Part shown: positions 1 through 58,016 of the stretch, piece by piece
Layout: each line of letters starts with the position of its first letter
How positions within the stretch are numbered: the first letter of the stretch is position 1
Origin: Bacillota bacterium
GTDB lineage: Bacteria > Bacillota > UBA994 > UBA5500
Direction of reading: 5' to 3'
NCBI GenBank assembly: GCA_050949085.1
Contig: JBMNFB010000009.1
Span: 352,446 to 416,445, forward strand
Length of the DNA stretch: 64,000 nucleotides
Notes under the pieces: model-generated
What the model was told of the DNA's origin: nothing
Seen by the model: the letters and a program-made list of their open reading frames with translations, nothing else
The model's database searches: none
Made by a program: the position numbers and the translations under genes

Positions 1-240
1 TTCAATAAGGCGATGTTTGCTTGTCAAACATCGGATGGTACCCAAAGCAAGTCGGTACGACTTGCGAGTTCAATAAGGCGATGTTTGCTTGTCAAACATC
101 GGATGGTACCCAAAGCAAGTCGGTACGACTTGCGAGTTCAATAAGGCGATGTTTGCTTGTCAAACATCGGATGGTACCCAACAGCAAGTCGGTACGACTT
201 GCGAGTTCAATAAGGCGATGTTTGCTTGTCAAACATCGGG
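1..240. repeat. Tandem array A1 of a 68/69-nt double-hairpin unit (at least 3.5 copies; cut by the window edge)
   Basis: Unit AGCAAGTCGGTACGACTTGCGAGTTCAATAAGGCGATGTTTGCTTGTCAAACATCGGATGGTACCCAA restarts at 46, 114 and 183. The third copy has one inserted base. Each unit has hairpins GCAAGTCG-gta-CGACTTGC and CGATGTTTG-cttgt-CAAACATCG. The array ends about 20 nt beyond the hutI stop. Confidence 0.95.
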
Positions 241-30376: not shown

Positions 30377-30790
30377 CAGGGCATCACCCCTGAAGGCGCA
30401 TCCCGATAGGTCGTTAGTGAGGTACCAACCGATGTTTGCAGGCAAACATCGCCTTATTGACATCGCAAGTCCCTATCGGGACTCGCTTAAGAGAAGGCGA
30501 AACGAGACGGGAGTGCTTGCGCACTTGCTAGAGCAGCAACTGTCTGAGCTCTCCCTGGCAGTCATACAAGGTGAGCTCAGACGCCACCCATGGCATAGAT
30601 GCCAAGAGTTCTGGCTTCGGTGGGGCGAGTTTTGCTGCTCCCCGACTCGTTTCGTTTGATACCGTATAAGTTGGGGACATACCTCAGAGACTCAAGACGA
30701 GCATCAGGCAATGCCCACCAAATCGGCATCATGCTGAGGTGTGTCCCCTGACCTTTGACGACATCGGCGCGCCCGAAGGGGTGTGCCCTG
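30377..30790. repeat. Copy A of a structured intergenic element bounded by inverted repeats (candidate ncRNA or MITE-like element)
   Basis: Arms CAGGGCATCACCCCT (30377-30391) and AGGGGTGTGCCCTG (30777-30790). Shares ordered blocks with 42089-42384, including identical AGCAGCAACTGT and GCGAGTTTTGCTGCT. Contains one 68-nt double-hairpin unit. Confidence 0.75.
30421..30490 (-). repeat. Solitary copy of the 68-nt double-hairpin unit, inverted relative to arrays A1 and A2
   Basis: The reverse complement reads GCGAGTCCC-gata-GGGACTTGC ... AATAAGG CGATGTTTG-cctg-CAAACATCG GTTGGTACC. It is collinear with the array unit. Confidence 0.85.
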
Positions 30791-46770: not shown

Positions 46771-47974
46771 TTATTCGATGATCTCGGTTACAACGCCCGA
46801 ACCAACCGTGCGGCCGCCCTCGCGGATGGCGAGACGCAGGCCCCGCTCCAGAGCGATCGGCGTGATCAGCTCGATGGTCATGGTCACGTTGTCACCAGGC
46901 ATGACCATCTCCACGCCCTCCGGCAGCTCGATGCTACCGGTCACGTCGGTGGTGCGGAAGAAGAACTGCGGACGATAGCCGCTGAAGAATGCGGTATGGC
47001 GGCCGCCCTCTTCCTTCTTCAGGACGTAGACTTCAGCCTTGAACTTGGTGTGCGGCTTGATGGTGCCCGGCTTGGCCAGAACCATACCGCGCTCGATGGA
47101 CTGGCGATCGACACCGCGCAGCAGCAGACCGACGTTGTCGCCGGCTTCAGCCCGCTCCAGCAGCTTGCGGAACATCTCCACGCCGGTGACGACAGTCTTG
47201 CGGGATTCCTCGCGCAGGCCGACGATCTCTACCTCGTCGCCAACCTTGACGGTGCCGCGCTCGACCCGGCCGGTACCCACAGTTCCCGCGACCGGTGATG
47301 GTGAAGACGTCTTCCACCGGCATCAGGAACGGCTTGTCAGCCTCGCGCTCAGGAGTCGGGATGTACTCGTCCACGACATCCATCAGCTCCCAGATCTTGC
47401 CGCACCACTCGCAGTCGCGGCTGCCGCAACCGCACTCCAGTGCCTTCAGAGCGGAACCGACCACGATCGGCGTGTCATCGCCTGGATAGCCGTAATCGGA
47501 AAGCAGCTCGCGCACTTCCATCTCTACCAGCTCGATCAGCTCAGGATCGTCCACCATGTCGGCCTTGTTCAGGAAGACAACGATGTAGGGGACGTTAACC
47601 TGGTGAGCCAGCAGGATGTGCTCGCGCGTCTGGGGCATCGGGCCGTCAGCGGCCGATACCACGAGAATGGCACCGTCCATCTGGGCTGCACCGGTGATCA
47701 TGTTCTTGATGTAGTCAGCGTGACCCGGGCAGTCGACGTGAGCATAGTGCCGACTCTCGGTCTCATACTCCACGTGCGAAGTGTTGATGGTGATGCCGCG
47801 GGCCTTCTCTTCTGGCGCCTTGTCGATCTGGTCGTAGCCCATCTTGGCGGCGCCGCCTACGGTCGAAAGAGCGCTGGTCAGGGCTGCCGTCAGTGTGGTC
47901 TTGCCATGGTCGATATGACCGATGGTGCCAATGTTCACGTGCGGCTTGGTGCGCTCAAACTTTTGCTTTGCCAT
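46771..47974 (-). pseudogene. tuf: Elongation factor Tu with the frame broken by a 1-nt insertion (track pieces 47147..47974 and 46771..47280)
   Basis: The N-piece has [18 protein letters not shown] and NKAD and ends ...FTITGRG, then nonsense. The C-piece resumes ...[20 protein letters not shown]. Minus strand reads CGC GGG AAC TGT GGG TAC CGG; deleting one A (plus TT at 47283-47284) restores [12 protein letters not shown] and a 400-codon ORF. Confidence 0.85.
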
Positions 47975-48206: not shown

Positions 48207-48312
48207 GGATTAAATCCTTTCAAATCCCTTTGGGATTTGCAGTGGTACAAGCCGATAGTTGCTACCGCAACAATCGCTTTATTGGATTATCAAATCCCTT
48301 TGGGATTTGAAT

Positions 48313-48389
<77 letters not shown>

Positions 48390-48502
48390 CCGTTATCGAG
48401 TTGTGGTTATCAAATCCCTTCAGGATTTGCAGTGGTACAAGCCGATAGTTGCTACCGCAACGATCGCTTTATTGGATTATCAAATCCCTTCAGGATTTGA
48501 AA

Positions 48503-48579
<77 letters not shown>

Positions 48580-48594
48580 TCGTTTCACATATTG

Positions 48595-55223: not shown

Positions 55224-56291
55224 CTAGAAATGCCGATCCACCAATACCTGCTCCTGCAGACGGCGCAGCCCATCCTTGATAGCGCGAGCGCGCACCTCGC
55301 CGATGCCTTCCACTTCGTCCAACTCTTCCAGCGACGCCCGGAGGATGCTCTGCAGACTCCCAAACTGCTCCACCAGGTTCTCGACCACGCTGGCCGGCAG
55401 CCGCGGAATCTTGCTAGCGATGCGATAGCCCCGTGGCGAGACTGCCTGCTCCAGTGCGTTGAGGCTGGCGCCATATCCCATCAGTCGACAGAAATTGATC
55501 GGTTCCAGCAGCTCCTCCGGCGTGAACTGGCTCAGCTGCTCTTTCAGCTCCTCTGGGCTGCGCGTCTCTCCCGGCGCAGCATAATCGCGCATTACCGCCA
55601 GCGAATCAGCCTCAGAATTGCCCACCAGCTCCACCATCTGCATGTTCACGAGACGACCTTCGGTCCCCAGTTCGATGATATAGCGCTTCAGCTCCGCCAC
55701 AATCCGGGCTACCATTTCAAAGCGCTGGACAACGATGCTCACATCATAGATGGTCACCTGATCCTCAAACTCCAGGGCGCTCAGGTTGATCAGCGCCTGA
55801 TTGAGCACCGCCTGATACTTCTCCAGGGTCTGCAAGGCCTGATTGGCCTTGGAGAGAATCACGCTGAGATCGCGCAGGATGTATTTCTGGGACCCGAGGT
55901 AGAGGCTGATGATGTTGCGCCGCTGAGAGATGGCGATCACCAACTCCTTGGTGAGGCGGGCCACCCGCTCGGCGGTGCGGTGCCGGATGCCGGTCTCGGT
56001 GGAGGGAATACTGGGGTCAACCACTAGCTGGGTGTTGGCGTAAACAATTCTCCGCCCGTCGCTGCTCAGAATAATCGCCCCGTCCATCTTGGCCAGTTCA
56101 TATAATGCCTCGGGCGTGAACTCGCAGTCCAGCTGGAACCCACCGTCAGCCAACTCCAGAACAGCAGGTGAATCGCTCATAATCACAATCGCCCCGGTAC
56201 GGGCGCGTAGAACGTTATCCAGGCCCTCGCGCAGCGGTGTTCCCGGAGCAAGACGACGTAAGGCGCGCTGCAGCTCCTTCTCGTCAGCCAA
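55224..56291 (-). CDS. disA: DNA integrity scanning protein / diadenylate cyclase DisA
   Basis: LAPGTPLREGLDNVLRA, DAC-domain DGAIILS and TGIRHRTAERV, C-terminal HhH EVEGIGEVRARAI. TTG 56291 lies 8 nt after GAAGGAGGGGGG (track TTG 56315 lies inside the repeat array). Confidence 0.92.
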   Translation of the reverse strand: MADEKELQRALRRLAPGTPLREGLDNVLRARTGAIVIMSDSPAVLELADGGFQLDCEFTPEALYELAKMDGAIILSSDGRRIVYANTQLVVDPSIPSTETGIRHRTAERVARLTKELVIAISQRRNIISLYLGSQKYILRDLSVILSKANQALQTLEKYQAVLNQALINLSALEFEDQVTIYDVSIVVQRFEMVARIVAELKRYIIELGTEGRLVNMQMVELVGNSEADSLAVMRDYAAPGETRSPEELKEQLSQFTPEELLEPINFCRLMGYGASLNALEQAVSPRGYRIASKIPRLPASVVENLVEQFGSLQSILRASLEELDEVEGIGEVRARAIKDGLRRLQEQVLVDRHF

Positions 56292-56310
56292 GCCGCTTCC
56301 CCCCTCCTTC

Positions 56311-56599
56311 AGCAAGTCCGTTAGGACTTGCGAGCTAGATAAGGTGATGTTTGCTTGCCAAACATCAGATGGTACATCAGCAAGTCCGTTAGGACTTGCG
56401 AGCTAGATAAGGTGATGTTTGCTTGCCAAACATCAGATGGTACCTTAGCAAGTCCGTCAGGACTTGCGAGCTAGATAAGGTGATGTTTGCTTGCCAAACA
56501 TCAGATGGCACCTTAGCAAGTCCGTCAGGACTTGCGAGCTAGATAAGGTGATGTTTGCTTGCCAAACATCAGATGGCACCTTAGCAAGTCCGTCAGGAC
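56311..56599. repeat. Tandem array A2 of the 68-nt double-hairpin unit (4 full copies plus a 17-nt partial)
   Basis: Units start at 56311, 56379, 56447, 56515 and 56583. Unit AGCAAGTCCGTYAGGACTTGCGAGCTAGATAAGGTGATGTTTGCTTGCCAAACATCAGATGGYACMTY. Fills the radA-disA intergenic space. Confidence 0.95.
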
Positions 56600-56645: not shown

Positions 56646-58016
56646 TCAACTCAACGCCTGCTGCAGCGCCTCGGCTACCTGCGAAACGCCGATCAGTTGT
56701 ACATCTGGATTCTGGTAGCCAGAGCGCAGGTTGCTCCTGGGCAGGATGATCCGCTGAAAACCCAGTTTTACGGCCTCGTTTACCCGGCTCTCCAGGCGGC
56801 TGACGCCGCGCACTTCACCGGCCAGCCCGACCTCACCCAGGATCAGGTCACGCGGACCCGGCGCCCGCTCCCGGAAACTGGAGACAATGGCTACCGCCAG
56901 CCCCAGATCGGCGGCCGGCTCCAGAACCTTGACGCCGCCCACCGCGTTGACATAGGTGTCCTGAAACTGCAGTTGCAGGCCGAGGCGCTTCTCCAGCACA
57001 GCCAGGATCATAGCCACACGGCTGTTGTCCACGCCGGACGTCATCCGGCGCGGCGTGCCCAGCGTGCTGGGGGCCACGAGAGCCTGCAATTCCACGAGAA
57101 TTGGGCGCGTACCCTCCATGGCGGCAACCACCACCGAACCGGCCACGCCGATCGGTCGCTCACCGAGAAACAGCTCCGAGGGGTTCTCCACCTCGCGCAA
57201 CCCGGCCTCGCCCATCTGAAAAACGCCGATCTCGTTGGTGGAGCCAAAACGGTTCTTGACCCCGCGCAACACCCGGAATGACTGATGCCGTTCGCCCTCG
57301 AAATAAAGAACAGCATCCACCATGTGCTCCAGCACCCGGGGGCCAGCGATGGCGCCGTCCTTGGTCACATGCCCCACCAGGAAAACGACGGCTCCAGTCT
57401 GCTTGGCATAGCGGATCAGGCGGGACGCGCACTCCCGGATCTGGGTCACTGTCCCAGGGGCTGAACTCAGGTTGGCATCATAGACGGTCTGGATGGAGTC
57501 AATGACGGCCACCTGCGGCCTGGTCAGCTCCAGCTGGGCCAGGATAGTGGCCAGCTCGGTCTCCGCCGCCAACAGGATCGGGCCGCTCCTCACTTTGAGC
57601 CGATCTGCCCTCAGTTTGGTCTGTTCCACCGATTCCTCGCCCGATATGTAAAGCACTGTAGCGTCCCTTGCAGCCAGCTGACCAGCCAGCTGCATGAGGA
57701 TCGTCGATTTGCCGATCCCTGGATCGCCCCCCAGCAGGATCGCTTCGCCCGGGACGATGCCTCCGCCCAGCACACGGTCCAGCTCAGCGATCTGGGTGGG
57801 AATGCGCATTATCGGTCGCTGATCAATTTCCTCCAGTCGGGCCGGCGCCTGCACTCTCGCCCGGGTCGGCAGATTTGGCGCTGTCGCCTCAATAACTTCC
57901 TCCTGCAGGGTACCCCATTCGCCGCACTCCGGACAGCGGCCCAGCCATCTGGCGGTCTCGTATCCGCAGGCTTGGCAGACATACTTGCTCCTTCGCTTGA
58001 TACCCCTCACCCCCAT
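56646..58016 (-). CDS. radA: DNA repair protein RadA/Sms
   Basis: Zinc ribbon CQACGYETARWLGRCPECGEWG, Walker A GGDPGIGKST, KNRFG, Lon-like C-domain. Confidence 0.94.
   Translation of the reverse strand: MGVRGIKRRSKYVCQACGYETARWLGRCPECGEWGTLQEEVIEATAPNLPTRARVQAPARLEEIDQRPIMRIPTQIAELDRVLGGGIVPGEAILLGGDPGIGKSTILMQLAGQLAARDATVLYISGEESVEQTKLRADRLKVRSGPILLAAETELATILAQLELTRPQVAVIDSIQTVYDANLSSAPGTVTQIRECASRLIRYAKQTGAVVFLVGHVTKDGAIAGPRVLEHMVDAVLYFEGERHQSFRVLRGVKNRFGSTNEIGVFQMGEAGLREVENPSELFLGERPIGVAGSVVVAAMEGTRPILVELQALVAPSTLGTPRRMTSGVDNSRVAMILAVLEKRLGLQLQFQDTYVNAVGGVKVLEPAADLGLAVAIVSSFRERAPGPRDLILGEVGLAGEVRGVSRLESRVNEAVKLGFQRIILPRSNLRSGYQNPDVQLIGVSQVAEALQQALS

Follow-up and report, generated by a model that had tools for sequence, protein, structure and literature searches.

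The array of direct repeats between radA and disA in this uncultured species of Bacillota (array 2) is one locus of a dispersed, species-specific family of 68-bp repeats, and this lineage-specific, structured, minisatellite-like family is probably a non-autonomous selfish or near-neutral DNA element. The window, by which we mean the whole 64,000-nt stretch of DNA that was analyzed, holds four family loci (Table 1). Further arrays are borne by four other contigs, which are assigned to the same species through an L33 that is identical on another MTKW01 contig, and the period is 67–69 bp at all array loci. The arrays occupy spacers between co-directional genes (radA-disA, hutI-orf56 and yqfD-phoH-like), while non-operon copies are found in tRNA spacers and behind purR. 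The earlier note on this DNA had treated array 2 as a second array with a role specific to disA, which this range of neighbors shows to be too narrow.

Organization of array 2

For array 2, TRF returned a period of 68, 4.3 copies, 96% matches and a score of 537. Units are described here on the F strand, which reads hairpin 1, hairpin 2 and tail; at array 2 this is the plus strand, and the sense strand of radA and disA is its reverse complement, called R. The family unit of ~68 bp comprises hairpin 1, a conserved GCGAG...ATAAGG, hairpin 2 and a TGG(T/C)ACC tail. In array 2, hairpin 1 is GCAAGTCC-N4-GGACTTGC, which occurs four times against 0.09 expected, and hairpin 2 is TGATGTTTG-N5-CAAACATCA; both hairpins of each unit are perfect. 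The register of four full units and a 17-nt partial unit that had been read from the sequence beforehand was reproduced exactly (Table 1). Variation within the array is confined to the hairpin-1 loop (GTTA or GTCA) and the tail. It had also been noted that the array ends close to the disA Shine-Dalgarno (SD) sequence; indeed, the SD directly abuts or overlaps the array end. The whole 68-bp period repeats inside arrays at 96–99% identity, with none of the unique spacers of a CRISPR array, and identity between loci is 74–88%. This difference bears out the local homogenization proposed for the units.

Table 1. Repeat units and neighboring features, in window coordinates.
Feature	Position	Strand	Description	Basis
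Array 2	56306–56599	+	radA-disA spacer; 4.3 tandem 68-bp units	TRF, unit register, CM matches of 80–90 bits
Unit 1 of array 2	56311–56378	+	Adjoins disA SD; hairpin 1 at 56312–56331, loop GTTA; hairpin 2 at 56345–56367; tail GGTACATC	
Unit 2 of array 2	56379–56446	+	Loop GTTA; tail GGTACCTT	
Unit 3 of array 2	56447–56514	+	Loop GTCA; tail GGCACCTT	
Unit 4 of array 2	56515–56582	+	Loop GTCA; tail GGCACCTT	
Partial fifth unit of array 2	56583–56599	+	17 nt; incomplete hairpin 1; radA side	
disA	55224–56291	-	355 aa; start TTG at 56291	Pfam DAC + DisA-linker + HHH; exact product on public contigs
disA SD	56299–56310	-	GAAGGAGGGGGG; array 2 periodicity extends into its first bases (AAGG)	
radA ORF	56646–58016	-	Stop 47 nt upstream of array 2 on the sense strand	Pfam
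Array 1	1–239	+	Clipped by window edge; complete at L012 13928–14193 (3.9 units); spacer between hutI and a 56-aa ORF	
Solo diverged unit (S3)	30419–30488	-	Gap between convergent purR and yflT-like genes; further, degenerate hairpin 1 at ~30512–30542	74.9 bits
Diverged unit, subfamily T	48242–48312	-	tRNA-Met / tRNA-Thr spacer, directly after the tRNA-Met CCA end; extra hairpin 1 at 48221–48239	
Diverged unit, subfamily T	48432–48502	-	Between two tRNA-Met copies; extra hairpin 1 at 48411–48429	

Hairpin folding and covariation

On either strand, the array 2 region folds far better than its shuffles (z = -6.3 and -7.0), and single units fold with z = -3.6 to -6.4, whether as RNA or as DNA. 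Relative to array 1, the "about 12" differences counted earlier by hand became 11 substitutions and 2 indels upon alignment; the substance of the comparison stood, since both named compensatory pairs (G-C to C-G in hairpin 1 and C-G to T-A in hairpin 2, from array 1 to array 2) were recovered and no stem position had changed alone. A family-wide test of 17 stem pairs in 14 distinct units from 8 loci extended this result. Double compensatory changes were present at 6 of the 17 pairs, and 97.9% of pair cells were kept paired versus 28–42% when the partners were slid. Moreover, the further copies did not accumulate stem and loop changes equally: per-column divergence was 0.14 in stems and 0.60 in loops, making stems four times less variable. 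Taken together, these data support the proposal that secondary structure is under selection. The unpaired conserved motifs (ATAAGG, GCGAG and TGGYACC) could equally be RNA signals or protein-binding signals.

Two further structural leads were dropped. G·U pairs, with one case for F and two for R, were uninformative as to strand. A third helix around hairpin 1, CACCUUA/UAAGGUG (CCUUA/UAAGG), is perfect in the array-2 units and not conserved across loci; by inspection, array 1, L003, L004, the T units and the GATGTACC variant do not keep it.

Distribution and age of the family

Relatives with 78–80% identical DisA have a radA-disA spacer of only 41–45 nt. The array is thus a recent insertion, contrary to the idea of a conserved regulatory leader. 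In ~115 kb of relatives' loci, much of which represents the same regions in several assemblies, no family match was found except a diverged copy at L022 (5–69). This near absence of copies from relatives, together with their short spacer, indicates that the family expanded recently. A degenerate family remnant also occurs at L002 (728–784).

At the tRNA locus, a 190-bp duplication comprises tRNA-Met and the subfamily T unit at 48432–48502 together. The tRNA-Met to tRNA-Thr spacer is 3 nt in the relative L025, and tRNA-Met is duplicated with an unrelated spacer in the relative L023. The T-arm of tRNA-Met and hairpin 1 of the neighboring T unit share an 11-nt identity, TTCAAATCCTG. A tRNA-like origin of the units was considered and set aside, as ARAGORN called no tRNA-like structure in any unit.

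Junctions and orientation

The constant phase of the junction at the gene-proximal array end is the new point of this analysis. In all three complete operon arrays, namely array 1 (A1), array 2 (A2) and L006, hairpin 1 at this end is followed after 3–4 nt by the GGAGG of the next gene: CGACTTGC-TCT-GGAGG at A1, GGACTTGC-TGAA-GGAGG at A2 and GCACTTGC-TTA-GGAGG at L006. At the tRNA locus the corresponding sequence is GGATTTGA-AA/AT-TGGTAGC, in which the tRNA 3′ end appears as its complement. Each junction has 3–5 nt in common with the unit's own tail, and the opposite array end is truncated at variable unit positions. The junction rule was noticed post hoc and comprises the three operon arrays, the one tRNA locus and two weaker cases (S3 and L022, where the junction falls between CTC and TA). 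Adjacency of array and SD could instead stem from selection for a function, or from purifying selection on insertions.

With respect to transcription, the orientation of the repeats is mixed. When the visible gene next to each locus is taken as reference, its sense strand is R at A1, A2, L006, L003 and L004, and F at the T units, S3, L005 and L022. This argues against one strand-specific RNA function, and a selfish repeat that acts at the DNA level with a bias for its targets is favored over a riboregulator dedicated to disA; a target motif explains the mixture, whereas a strand-specific RNA role does not. Terminal inverted repeats were absent, the only inverted repeats being the hairpins of the units, long-range matches from one unit segment to another and one of 10 nt within the two coding regions, and no duplicated flank was seen at the inspected junctions (A2, A1 and the tRNA locus). 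Since both terminal inverted repeats and target-site duplications are lacking, no known transposition chemistry is demonstrated. The ~75 kb of genome read contained no transposase, RAYT or reverse transcriptase linked to the repeats.

Keeping these features in mind, we suggest that the element inserts between genes wherever it meets a short motif that it prefers. Read on the F strand, this target would be a pyrimidine-rich ...CC, supplied by a GGAGG ribosome-binding site (as its complement) or by the ...ACCA at the end of a tRNA. Local recombination or slippage would then make the array grow and shrink, by which its units would be homogenized, and the hairpins may be kept by compensatory change because a folded single strand is recognized by the propagation machinery, as for REP/RAYT or IS200/IS605-type elements. 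Array 2 would be transcribed passively within the radA-disA operon mRNA, and insertion would be tolerated because the array stops 3–4 nt before GGAGG and leaves the native SD and start codon intact; any consequence for disA, whether through coupling or through the processing or stability of the mRNA, would be a secondary one.

A bolder version of this reading, which we regard as quite unlikely, is that the family represents a new site-specific non-autonomous mobile element. Such an element would read the GGAGG complement or ...ACCA via 3–5 nt of pairing with its own tail, insert in fixed phase and multimerize, with either an HUH/Y1-type single-strand transposase or a reverse transcriptase priming on CCA-like ends as its vehicle. 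A stable hairpin would thus be set 3–4 nt upstream of ribosome-binding sites genome-wide and would modulate operon-internal expression.

Expression signals and alternative explanations

Operon read-through across array 2, as had been suggested, is plausible, since the radA-disA gap has no promoter-like or terminator-like consensus on either strand. The hairpins are followed on the sense strand by TAAGG or CCTTAT, with no U-tract of an intrinsic terminator. Units contain a mini-ORF, MF(G/D/V)(K/E)QTSP(Y), whose length varies (8, 9, 14 or 18 codons, or open-ended) and which stops 29–44 nt before the next start at arrays 1 and 2, and on the SD itself in L006. Several arrays have, in their internal units, an SD-like T(A/T)AGGTG that precedes an ATG by 7–8 nt, and in array 2 a stop codon lies 29 nt before the disA start in both loop variants (TGAC/TAAC). 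One array-2 variant lacks the SD-like motif, as do array 1 and L003. That the mini-ORF has a coding function was rejected because length and stop position differ between loci and the SD-like motif is not universal; translations of all open frames of the arrays gave nothing at E ≤ 0.001 against a set of 5.8 billion proteins. Predicted SD accessibility was unremarkable, with P(unpaired) of 0.34–0.51 versus 0.36–0.42 overall.

These observations bear on the idea that array 2, transcribed within radA-disA, acts in cis on the mRNA and is under selection for this role ("operon punctuation"). The hairpin block might shield the radA segment from 3′ exonucleases, and endonuclease cleavage in a linker might leave hairpin 1 5′ of the disA SD, uncoupling or tuning the stability and translation of the c-di-AMP synthase mRNA; alternatively, the unit ORFs (MFGKQTSPY...) might bring ribosomes to the disA start. 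We consider this possible, if on balance doubtful. The shared sense-strand orientation in three of three complete operon arrays, each with hairpin 1 just ahead of GGAGG, would suit such an element, but copies upstream of other genes, behind purR and between tRNA genes face the opposite way. Likewise, the SD-like motif with its ATG and the stop kept before disA would fit ribosome delivery, yet the motif is missing from the units named above, mini-ORF length is not conserved, and SD accessibility is ordinary. The gap without terminator or promoter accords with it, and intercistronic REP elements and MIRUs offer precedents for effects of this sort (PMC3184786, PMC12548453). However, the candidate third helix is not conserved across loci, and the relatives do without the array. 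There is no evidence for the family as a new regulatory principle in c-di-AMP signaling.

Spread via an RNA intermediate appears very unlikely. Here, a unit transcript ending in ...ACC(A/U) would be copied by a reverse transcriptase that switches templates end to end, from the 5′ end of one RNA to a CCA-like 3′ end on another, giving head-to-tail multimers and junctions between tRNA CCA and unit, which would then enter the chromosome by recombination. The reverse transcriptase of the Neurospora Mauriceville retroplasmid makes such CCA junctions. Units do lie directly after the tRNA-Met CCA end, and unit tails end in GTACCA, GCACCT or TACCCA, but what the units abut at the SD complements is not the 3′ end of an RNA. 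The arrays have one fixed and one variably truncated end, as this route would predict, although microhomology-mediated DNA events account for the same junctions. Duplication of tRNA-Met along with the units is a further point in its favor; against it, L023 carries the tRNA-Met duplication with an unrelated spacer, so that the duplication may predate the units. No reverse transcriptase gene was seen in the genome read.

A multicopy, trans-acting sRNA locus, with each unit as an independent small-RNA gene or with the array transcribed antisense, is highly improbable. A stable two-hairpin fold is available on either strand, and antisense expression had already been raised in the earlier note; still, neither array strand has a sigma-70-like promoter or an intrinsic terminator, no T-run follows either hairpin, and contiguous units leave no room for per-unit expression signals. 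Rfam searches are also at odds with this explanation, as the whole window yielded only a T-box, an L10 leader and tRNAs at the gathering threshold, and the array 2 region gave only chance-level matches of 14–18 bits at E ≤ 10. With plasmid and phage BLAST searches likewise finding no match to the repeat, no known RNA or repeat family matched it in these collections. A scan of viral contigs gave 0 matches, and a hairpin-2 pattern scan of genome contigs, in a collection that does not include this organism, returned only L001, in which an unrelated hairpin resembling a terminator lies close to tRNA genes of a Clostridia MAG; we dismissed it as a chance match.

Finally, that array 2 or its copy number is a short-read metagenome assembly artefact is barely credible: the apparent copy number is 2.3, 3.3 or 4.3 units by assembly, with identical flanks and reshuffled unit variants, coverage is low in one assembly (~6.6x), so that copy number and variant order may be unreliable, and the window's tuf is frameshifted but intact in other assemblies, yet array 2 has the same site and boundaries in at least six independent assemblies from different samples and pipelines, and related arrays exist at other loci.

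Comparison with known repeat families

The repeat resembles repeat families known from other bacteria and is not a new kind of system. By analogy, its closest functional counterpart appears to be the mycobacterial MIRU, with REP/BIME and BOX elements also similar. MIRUs are direct-tandem units of 40–100 bp in operon intergenic spacers that insert at the signals for translation initiation of the gene downstream and little disturb its expression (Supply et al., 1997, via PMC12548453 and PMC3184786). The family described here shares the direct head-to-tail arrangement (with a period of 67–69 bp, inside that size range), dispersal in operon intergenic spacers, a copy number that may vary between genomes, to judge from short-read metagenome assemblies, short ORFs in the units and insertion right at the next gene's translation-initiation signals. 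However, the likeness is one of description, and the host belongs to another phylum. The array abuts the SD motif, 3–4 nt before GGAGG, and not the start codon; its mini-ORFs, of unconserved length, end well before the start or on the SD (L006) and not in a -4 stop/start overlap. In addition, two perfect covarying hairpins make up most of the unit, and copies also occur beside tRNA genes and in opposite orientation.

REP/BIME elements of Enterobacteria and Pseudomonas, which are associated with RAYT transposases, are comparable as extragenic multi-copy hairpin repeats with stems kept by compensatory change; they are often intercistronic, co-transcribed and clustered, and are thought to be mobilized as folded single-stranded DNA. 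REPs alternate in orientation and have a conserved GTAG-type 5′ motif. Here, the units of any one array all point the same way, and no RAYT was seen in the ~75 kb. In addition, a REP is a single imperfect palindrome of ~35 bp (range 21–65 bp; PMC3184786), whereas the 68-bp unit has two distinct perfect hairpins and conserved linkers. The BOX element of Streptococcus pneumoniae is a Firmicute intergenic repeat with strong predicted structure and variable copy number that is transcribed with its neighbors (PMC3184786). It resembles the present family in being a Firmicute intergenic repeat with a tandem internal module, but, compared by description, BOX is modular (boxA, repeated boxB, boxC) with distinct terminal modules, and here the whole unit repeats without any.

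IS200/IS605-derived non-autonomous elements (PATE-type) may offer a lead, and only a lead. They have subterminal hairpins without inverted terminal repeats or target duplication, insert beside a short specific motif read via a few base pairs, and have a precisely defined end. In contrast to the family studied here, they have two defined ends and a replication-linked strand bias; here, one end is variably truncated, both orientations occur inside one 64-kb stretch, and no TnpA was found in the genome read. MITEs differ in having terminal inverted repeats and target-site duplications.

Implications

If our reading is true, the family is a clean, young example of a structured repeat colonizing the genome of one uncultured Bacillota species. 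The constant junction at ribosome-binding sites and at one tRNA 3′ end provides a concrete, testable hypothesis of target choice, and the parallel with MIRU insertion at start codons suggests that two phyla may independently have come to the same solution, insertion at sites that leave the translation signals intact. Strains of this lineage could also be told apart with the arrays as VNTR-like markers.

The arrays mislead gene callers and break short-read assemblies. The true disA start is most likely the TTG at 56291; a TTG at 56315, inside array 2, is taken as the start by some gene callers, making the protein 8 codons too long. Contigs of many assemblies break inside arrays, including the contig of the ispG neighborhood, which breaks inside the L004 array.

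Results

Array 2, the repeat array of the radA-disA gap, was recovered by TRF together with array 1, a member of the same family that is cut off by the window edge (see the table). Read on the plus strand of array 2 (F; its reverse complement, R, is the sense strand of radA and disA), the unit consists of hairpin 1 (GCAAGTCC-GTYA-GGACTTGC), a linker (GAGCTAGATAAGG), hairpin 2 (TGATGTTTG-CTTGC-CAAACATCA) and a tail, GATGG(C/T)AC(CT/AT)(T/C). The hairpin-1 pattern occurs four times, vs. 0.09 expected. Folding of the array region gave z = -6.3 on the plus strand and -7.0 on the minus strand, and single units formed two hairpins as RNA or DNA on either strand (z -3.6 to -6.4). The earlier note's description of the array was accurate in all details checked; unit alignment bore out the two compensatory pairs that separate array 2 from array 1, and units read in register showed variation within the array to be limited to the hairpin-1 loop and the tail.

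Pairs were counted on an alignment of 14 distinct units from eight loci. Standard pairs filled 97.9% of 238 pair cells, vs. 28-42% when the 3′ partners were slid by 1-3 columns. Two-sided changes affected 6 of the 17 pairs (16 cells), compared with 2.8 ± 1.1 pairs in shuffles (observed value reached in 3/500), and the covariation score was 0.228 vs. 0.085 in shuffles (reached in 0/500). With each locus represented by one unit, units differed pairwise by a mean of 0.14 per column in stems, 0.29 in the inter-hairpin linker, 0.39 in the tail and 0.60 in loops. Uncompensated stem changes at the linker rate were not seen, and the proposal of selection on secondary structure stands. The observation is confirmed and the structural inference supported. 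G·U-type evidence on the strand comprised one case for one strand and two for the other, which does not separate RNA from single-stranded DNA. Units are 96-99% identical within arrays vs. 74-88% between main-type loci, which bears out the local homogenization proposed earlier and amounts to concerted evolution.

The repeat is a dispersed family, not a local feature of radA-disA. Searches with BLAST, nhmmer and a covariance model from the 14 distinct units located two further loci in the window, a solo unit and a diverged subfamily between tRNA genes (T units). A metagenome scan with the hairpin-2 pattern gave four array-bearing contigs of MTKW01 (GCA_002049705.1; L003-L006 in the table), which were taken as same-species loci because the L33 encoded on another MTKW01 contig is identical to that of the window and the gene order there is the same. 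Contigs of many assemblies break off inside the arrays, and such breaks are the usual mark of a multi-copy repeat.

Members of the repeat family, with their positions, settings and array ends (junctions on the sense strand of the flanking genes)
Feature	Position	Setting and size	Junction with downstream gene	Opposite end
Array 2	window 56306-56599; units start at 56311, 56379, 56447, 56515; 17-nt partial from 56583	radA-disA gap; period 68, 4.3 copies, 96% matches	GGACTTGC TGAA GGAGGGGGG aagcggc TTG (disA)	inside hairpin 1
Array 1	window 1-239 (3.5 copies); complete copy L012 13928-14193 (3.9 units)	between hutI stop and 56-aa ORF	CGACTTGC TCT GGAGGTGA ttat GTG (orf56)	directly after hairpin 2
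L006 array		between yqfD-like and phoH-like genes	GCACTTGC TTA GGAGG cagagtat TTG (phoH-like)	in hairpin-2 loop
L003 array		directly past ABC-transporter gene		directly after hairpin 2
L004 array		past glycosyltransferase gene downstream of ispG		
L005 array		~195 nt upstream of 386-aa ORF		after ATAAGG
Solo unit	window 30419-30488, minus	convergent gap between purR and yflT-like gene; 74.9 bits		
T units	window 48242-48312, 48432-48502	spacers of tRNA-Met / tRNA-Met / tRNA-Thr; 63-65 bits		
Degenerate remnant	L002 728-784	upstream of EF-G paralogue		

Both stems of the T units depart from the main type, for the most part through compensatory changes: hairpin 1 reads CAAATCC/GGATTTG vs. CAAGTCC/GGACTTG in the main type, and in hairpin 2 one T-A pair has become G-C and one position is mismatched. 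Each T unit is followed by an extra hairpin 1. The locus (window 48207-48584) is a 190-bp tandem duplication of tRNA-Met plus a spacer of ~1.5 diverged units (hairpin 1, hairpin 2, hairpin 1). Eleven identical nucleotides (TTCAAATCCTG) are common to the tRNA-Met T-arm and hairpin 1 of the adjoining T unit (48313-48389 and 48480-48502, minus strand), and the unit tail GTACCA resembles the tRNA-Met 3′ end CTACCA; this likeness may have arisen by chance or by gene conversion, or may hint at the origin of the family. Stems of the solo unit, which is flanked by purR and the bidirectional terminator of the yflT-like gene, are altered yet paired (GCGAGTCCC/GGGACTTGC, with one G·T), and its hairpin-2 loop is shortened. 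A degenerate hairpin-1 remnant (GCAAGTGC GCAA GCACTCCC) precedes it (region 30419-30545, minus strand).

The main point of note is the constant junction of the repeat with ribosome-binding sites and, in one case, with a tRNA end. All three complete operon arrays, read along the sense strand of their flanking genes, end in the same unit phase, a new observation, with 3-4 nt between hairpin 1 and GGAGG in 3/3; the opposite end falls at a variable unit position. The junction flank has 3-5 nt in common with the sequence that follows hairpin 1 within the array (TAAGGTG, TTTGGGT, TTAGGTG). At the tRNA locus, the complement of the tRNA-Met 3′ end is joined to this same end of the unit (...GGATTTGA-A(A/T)-TGGTAGCGGGG), and the internal junction reads ...GGATTTG-CAG-TGGTAC. 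On the F strand, units start 2-4 nt past a ...CC motif (CCTCC or TACCA). The chance of landing within ±2 nt of one position in a 65-nt spacer is roughly 0.08 per locus, so that three same-phase junctions in three are improbable by chance, as judged from a post hoc pattern with small n. Unit tails terminate in CACC, TACC or TTCC, and such a CC-type tail would invite head-to-tail reinsertion or recombination.

Pfam confirms the gene order clpC, radA (56646-58016), array 2, disA, carD and PIN/TRAM, with every gene on the minus strand. For disA, the preferred start is TTG 56291, 7 nt past GAAGGAGGGGGG (56299-56310), and the resulting 355-aa product is on record from public contigs. Alternative calls, P0001 among them, start eight codons upstream at TTG 56315 within array 2 (363 aa); the repeat supplies spurious in-frame start codons for disA. 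In the disA cluster one member has 392 aa, and callers disagree on the start (window 56289-56315). A perfect 10-nt inverted repeat, GCGCTGCAGC / GCTGCAGCGC, which includes the palindrome CTGCAG, flanks the spacer (56265-56274 in disA, 56660-56669 in radA) and is probably due to chance.

Six further assemblies of the same population, with identical flanks, carry 2.3, 3.3 or 4.3 units in differing order of loop and tail variants, one with a G·U-creating substitution, and none is identical to the window's array 2. These differences look like minisatellite dynamics; they are only suggestive of copy-number polymorphism, as 68-bp repeats are not reliably assembled from short reads and coverage in one assembly is only ~6.6x. 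A frameshift breaks the window's tuf (EF-Tu; 46771-47974, minus strand) into overlapping ORFs of 275 aa and 169 aa; in other assemblies of the species (L002, L026) the gene is intact (400 aa). This frameshift probably stems from an assembly indel in the source of the window, and it is a warning about fine sequence details there.

Discussion

We somewhat favor the view that the family is a structured, non-autonomous repeat with a target bias, which expanded recently and undergoes passive transcription inside operons. At array 1, array 2, L006, L003 and L004 the sense strand of the adjacent visible gene reads R; it reads F in the tRNA spacers and behind purR, as well as at L005 and at L022, a relative's locus. 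Both orientations occur within the 64-kb window, where the yflT-like gene is the only one of the examined genes and RNA features not on the minus strand. A short target motif with context-dependent strand accounts for all orientation cases; for protein-coding genes the target would be the SD complement, on the antisense strand, and for tRNAs it would be ACCA, on the sense strand.

In the radA-disA gap we found no sigma-70-like promoter and no intrinsic terminator on either strand, so co-transcription of the array with both genes is plausible; radA and disA of B. subtilis are members of the clpC operon. The main rival, a selected role in mRNA punctuation or coupling, appears rather unlikely. 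One strand-specific RNA function predicts a single orientation relative to transcription, which does not hold. Neither does the single orientation along the window predicted, if it is one replichore, by a strict replication-strand bias as in IS200/IS605. Predicted SD accessibility was 0.34-0.51 vs. an overall average of 0.36-0.42 for each transcript; the array may affect how disA is translated or how stable its message is, but nothing specific supports this. The disA-specific RNA leader envisaged earlier is not supported, given a dispersed family, both orientations and a spacer of 41-45 nt in relatives. In some arrays, internal units carry an SD-like motif and, 7-8 nt further on, an ATG that opens a mini-ORF, MF(G/D/V)(K/E)QTSP(Y)...; in array 2 both loop variants (TGAC, TAAC) keep a stop codon. 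A coding role is not supported: neither array 1 nor L003 has the motif, nor does one array-2 variant, the ORF length is 8, 9, 14 or 18 codons or open (69-nt period, L003), and the conserved N-terminus is merely hairpin 2 plus a CCTTAT motif. In L003 (1-150; period 69 nt, 3 x 23) one sense-strand frame is open across all units (ETCHPMFGKQTSPYENRKCFALA repeated), and a protein-database search with this frame and other array translations gave no match. A TIR/TSD-type MITE was excluded by inverted-repeat search and the array junctions, and CRISPR by array structure.

The family belongs to a known class, the bacterial intergenic repeats, and had no match in Rfam, phage records, plasmid records or IMG/VR. 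REP/BIME elements share hairpin conservation and intercistronic location, but are single palindromes, unlike the two-hairpin unit, and these palindromes alternate in orientation. BOX elements share a tandem internal module; BOX alone has distinct terminal modules. Closest in behavior are MIRUs, tandem 40-100-bp units in operon spacers that are described as mobile (PMC12548453; PMC3184786). They are reported to insert at start codons, which couples the ORF of a unit to the gene downstream and leaves expression of that gene largely undisturbed (PMC12548453, citing Supply et al., 1997; PMC3184786). Both families are tandem, dispersed and operon-internal and adjoin initiation signals. Unlike MIRUs, the present repeat abuts the SD rather than the start codon, has no overlapping-ORF arrangement, is built on two covarying hairpins and has its host in a different phylum.

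The host, a member of the Bacillota, is known solely from metagenomes. The closest DisA with a taxon more specific than Bacillota/Firmicutes is ~63-64% identical (Symbiobacteriaceae), and the group of MAG DisA proteins at 75-80% identity is named, where at all, only as "Bacillota/Firmicutes bacterium". In two of these relatives (L022/L023 and L025) the radA-disA spacer is 41-45 nt with an ordinary SD. L025 has a single tRNA-Met, 3 nt and then tRNA-Thr; L023 has two tRNA-Met copies with an AT-rich spacer unrelated to the repeat. The covariance model found no match over ~115 kb of relatives' loci, much of it the same regions in several assemblies, except a diverged unit at L022 5-69 (40.6 bits; hairpin 1 GCAACGC/GCGTTGC, hairpin 2 T-like). 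The family is hence old in the clade, but its expansion in the species of the window is recent, as is the insertion of the array between radA and disA. The gap upstream of the EF-G paralogue holds the degenerate unit in L002 and, in L022 (5-120), a better-kept unit in opposite orientation together with a half unit whose second hairpin differs; this points to an old insertion site or to a spacer that was used repeatedly. In the relatives with ~80% identical DisA, radA is called as three ORFs (L022 7966-9959, L023 1464-3583, L025 7727-9955). The middle one (~240 aa, without Pfam match) separates the ATPase part from the Lon-like C-terminal part and has no counterpart in the radA of the window; it may represent an inserted element or an intein-like sequence.
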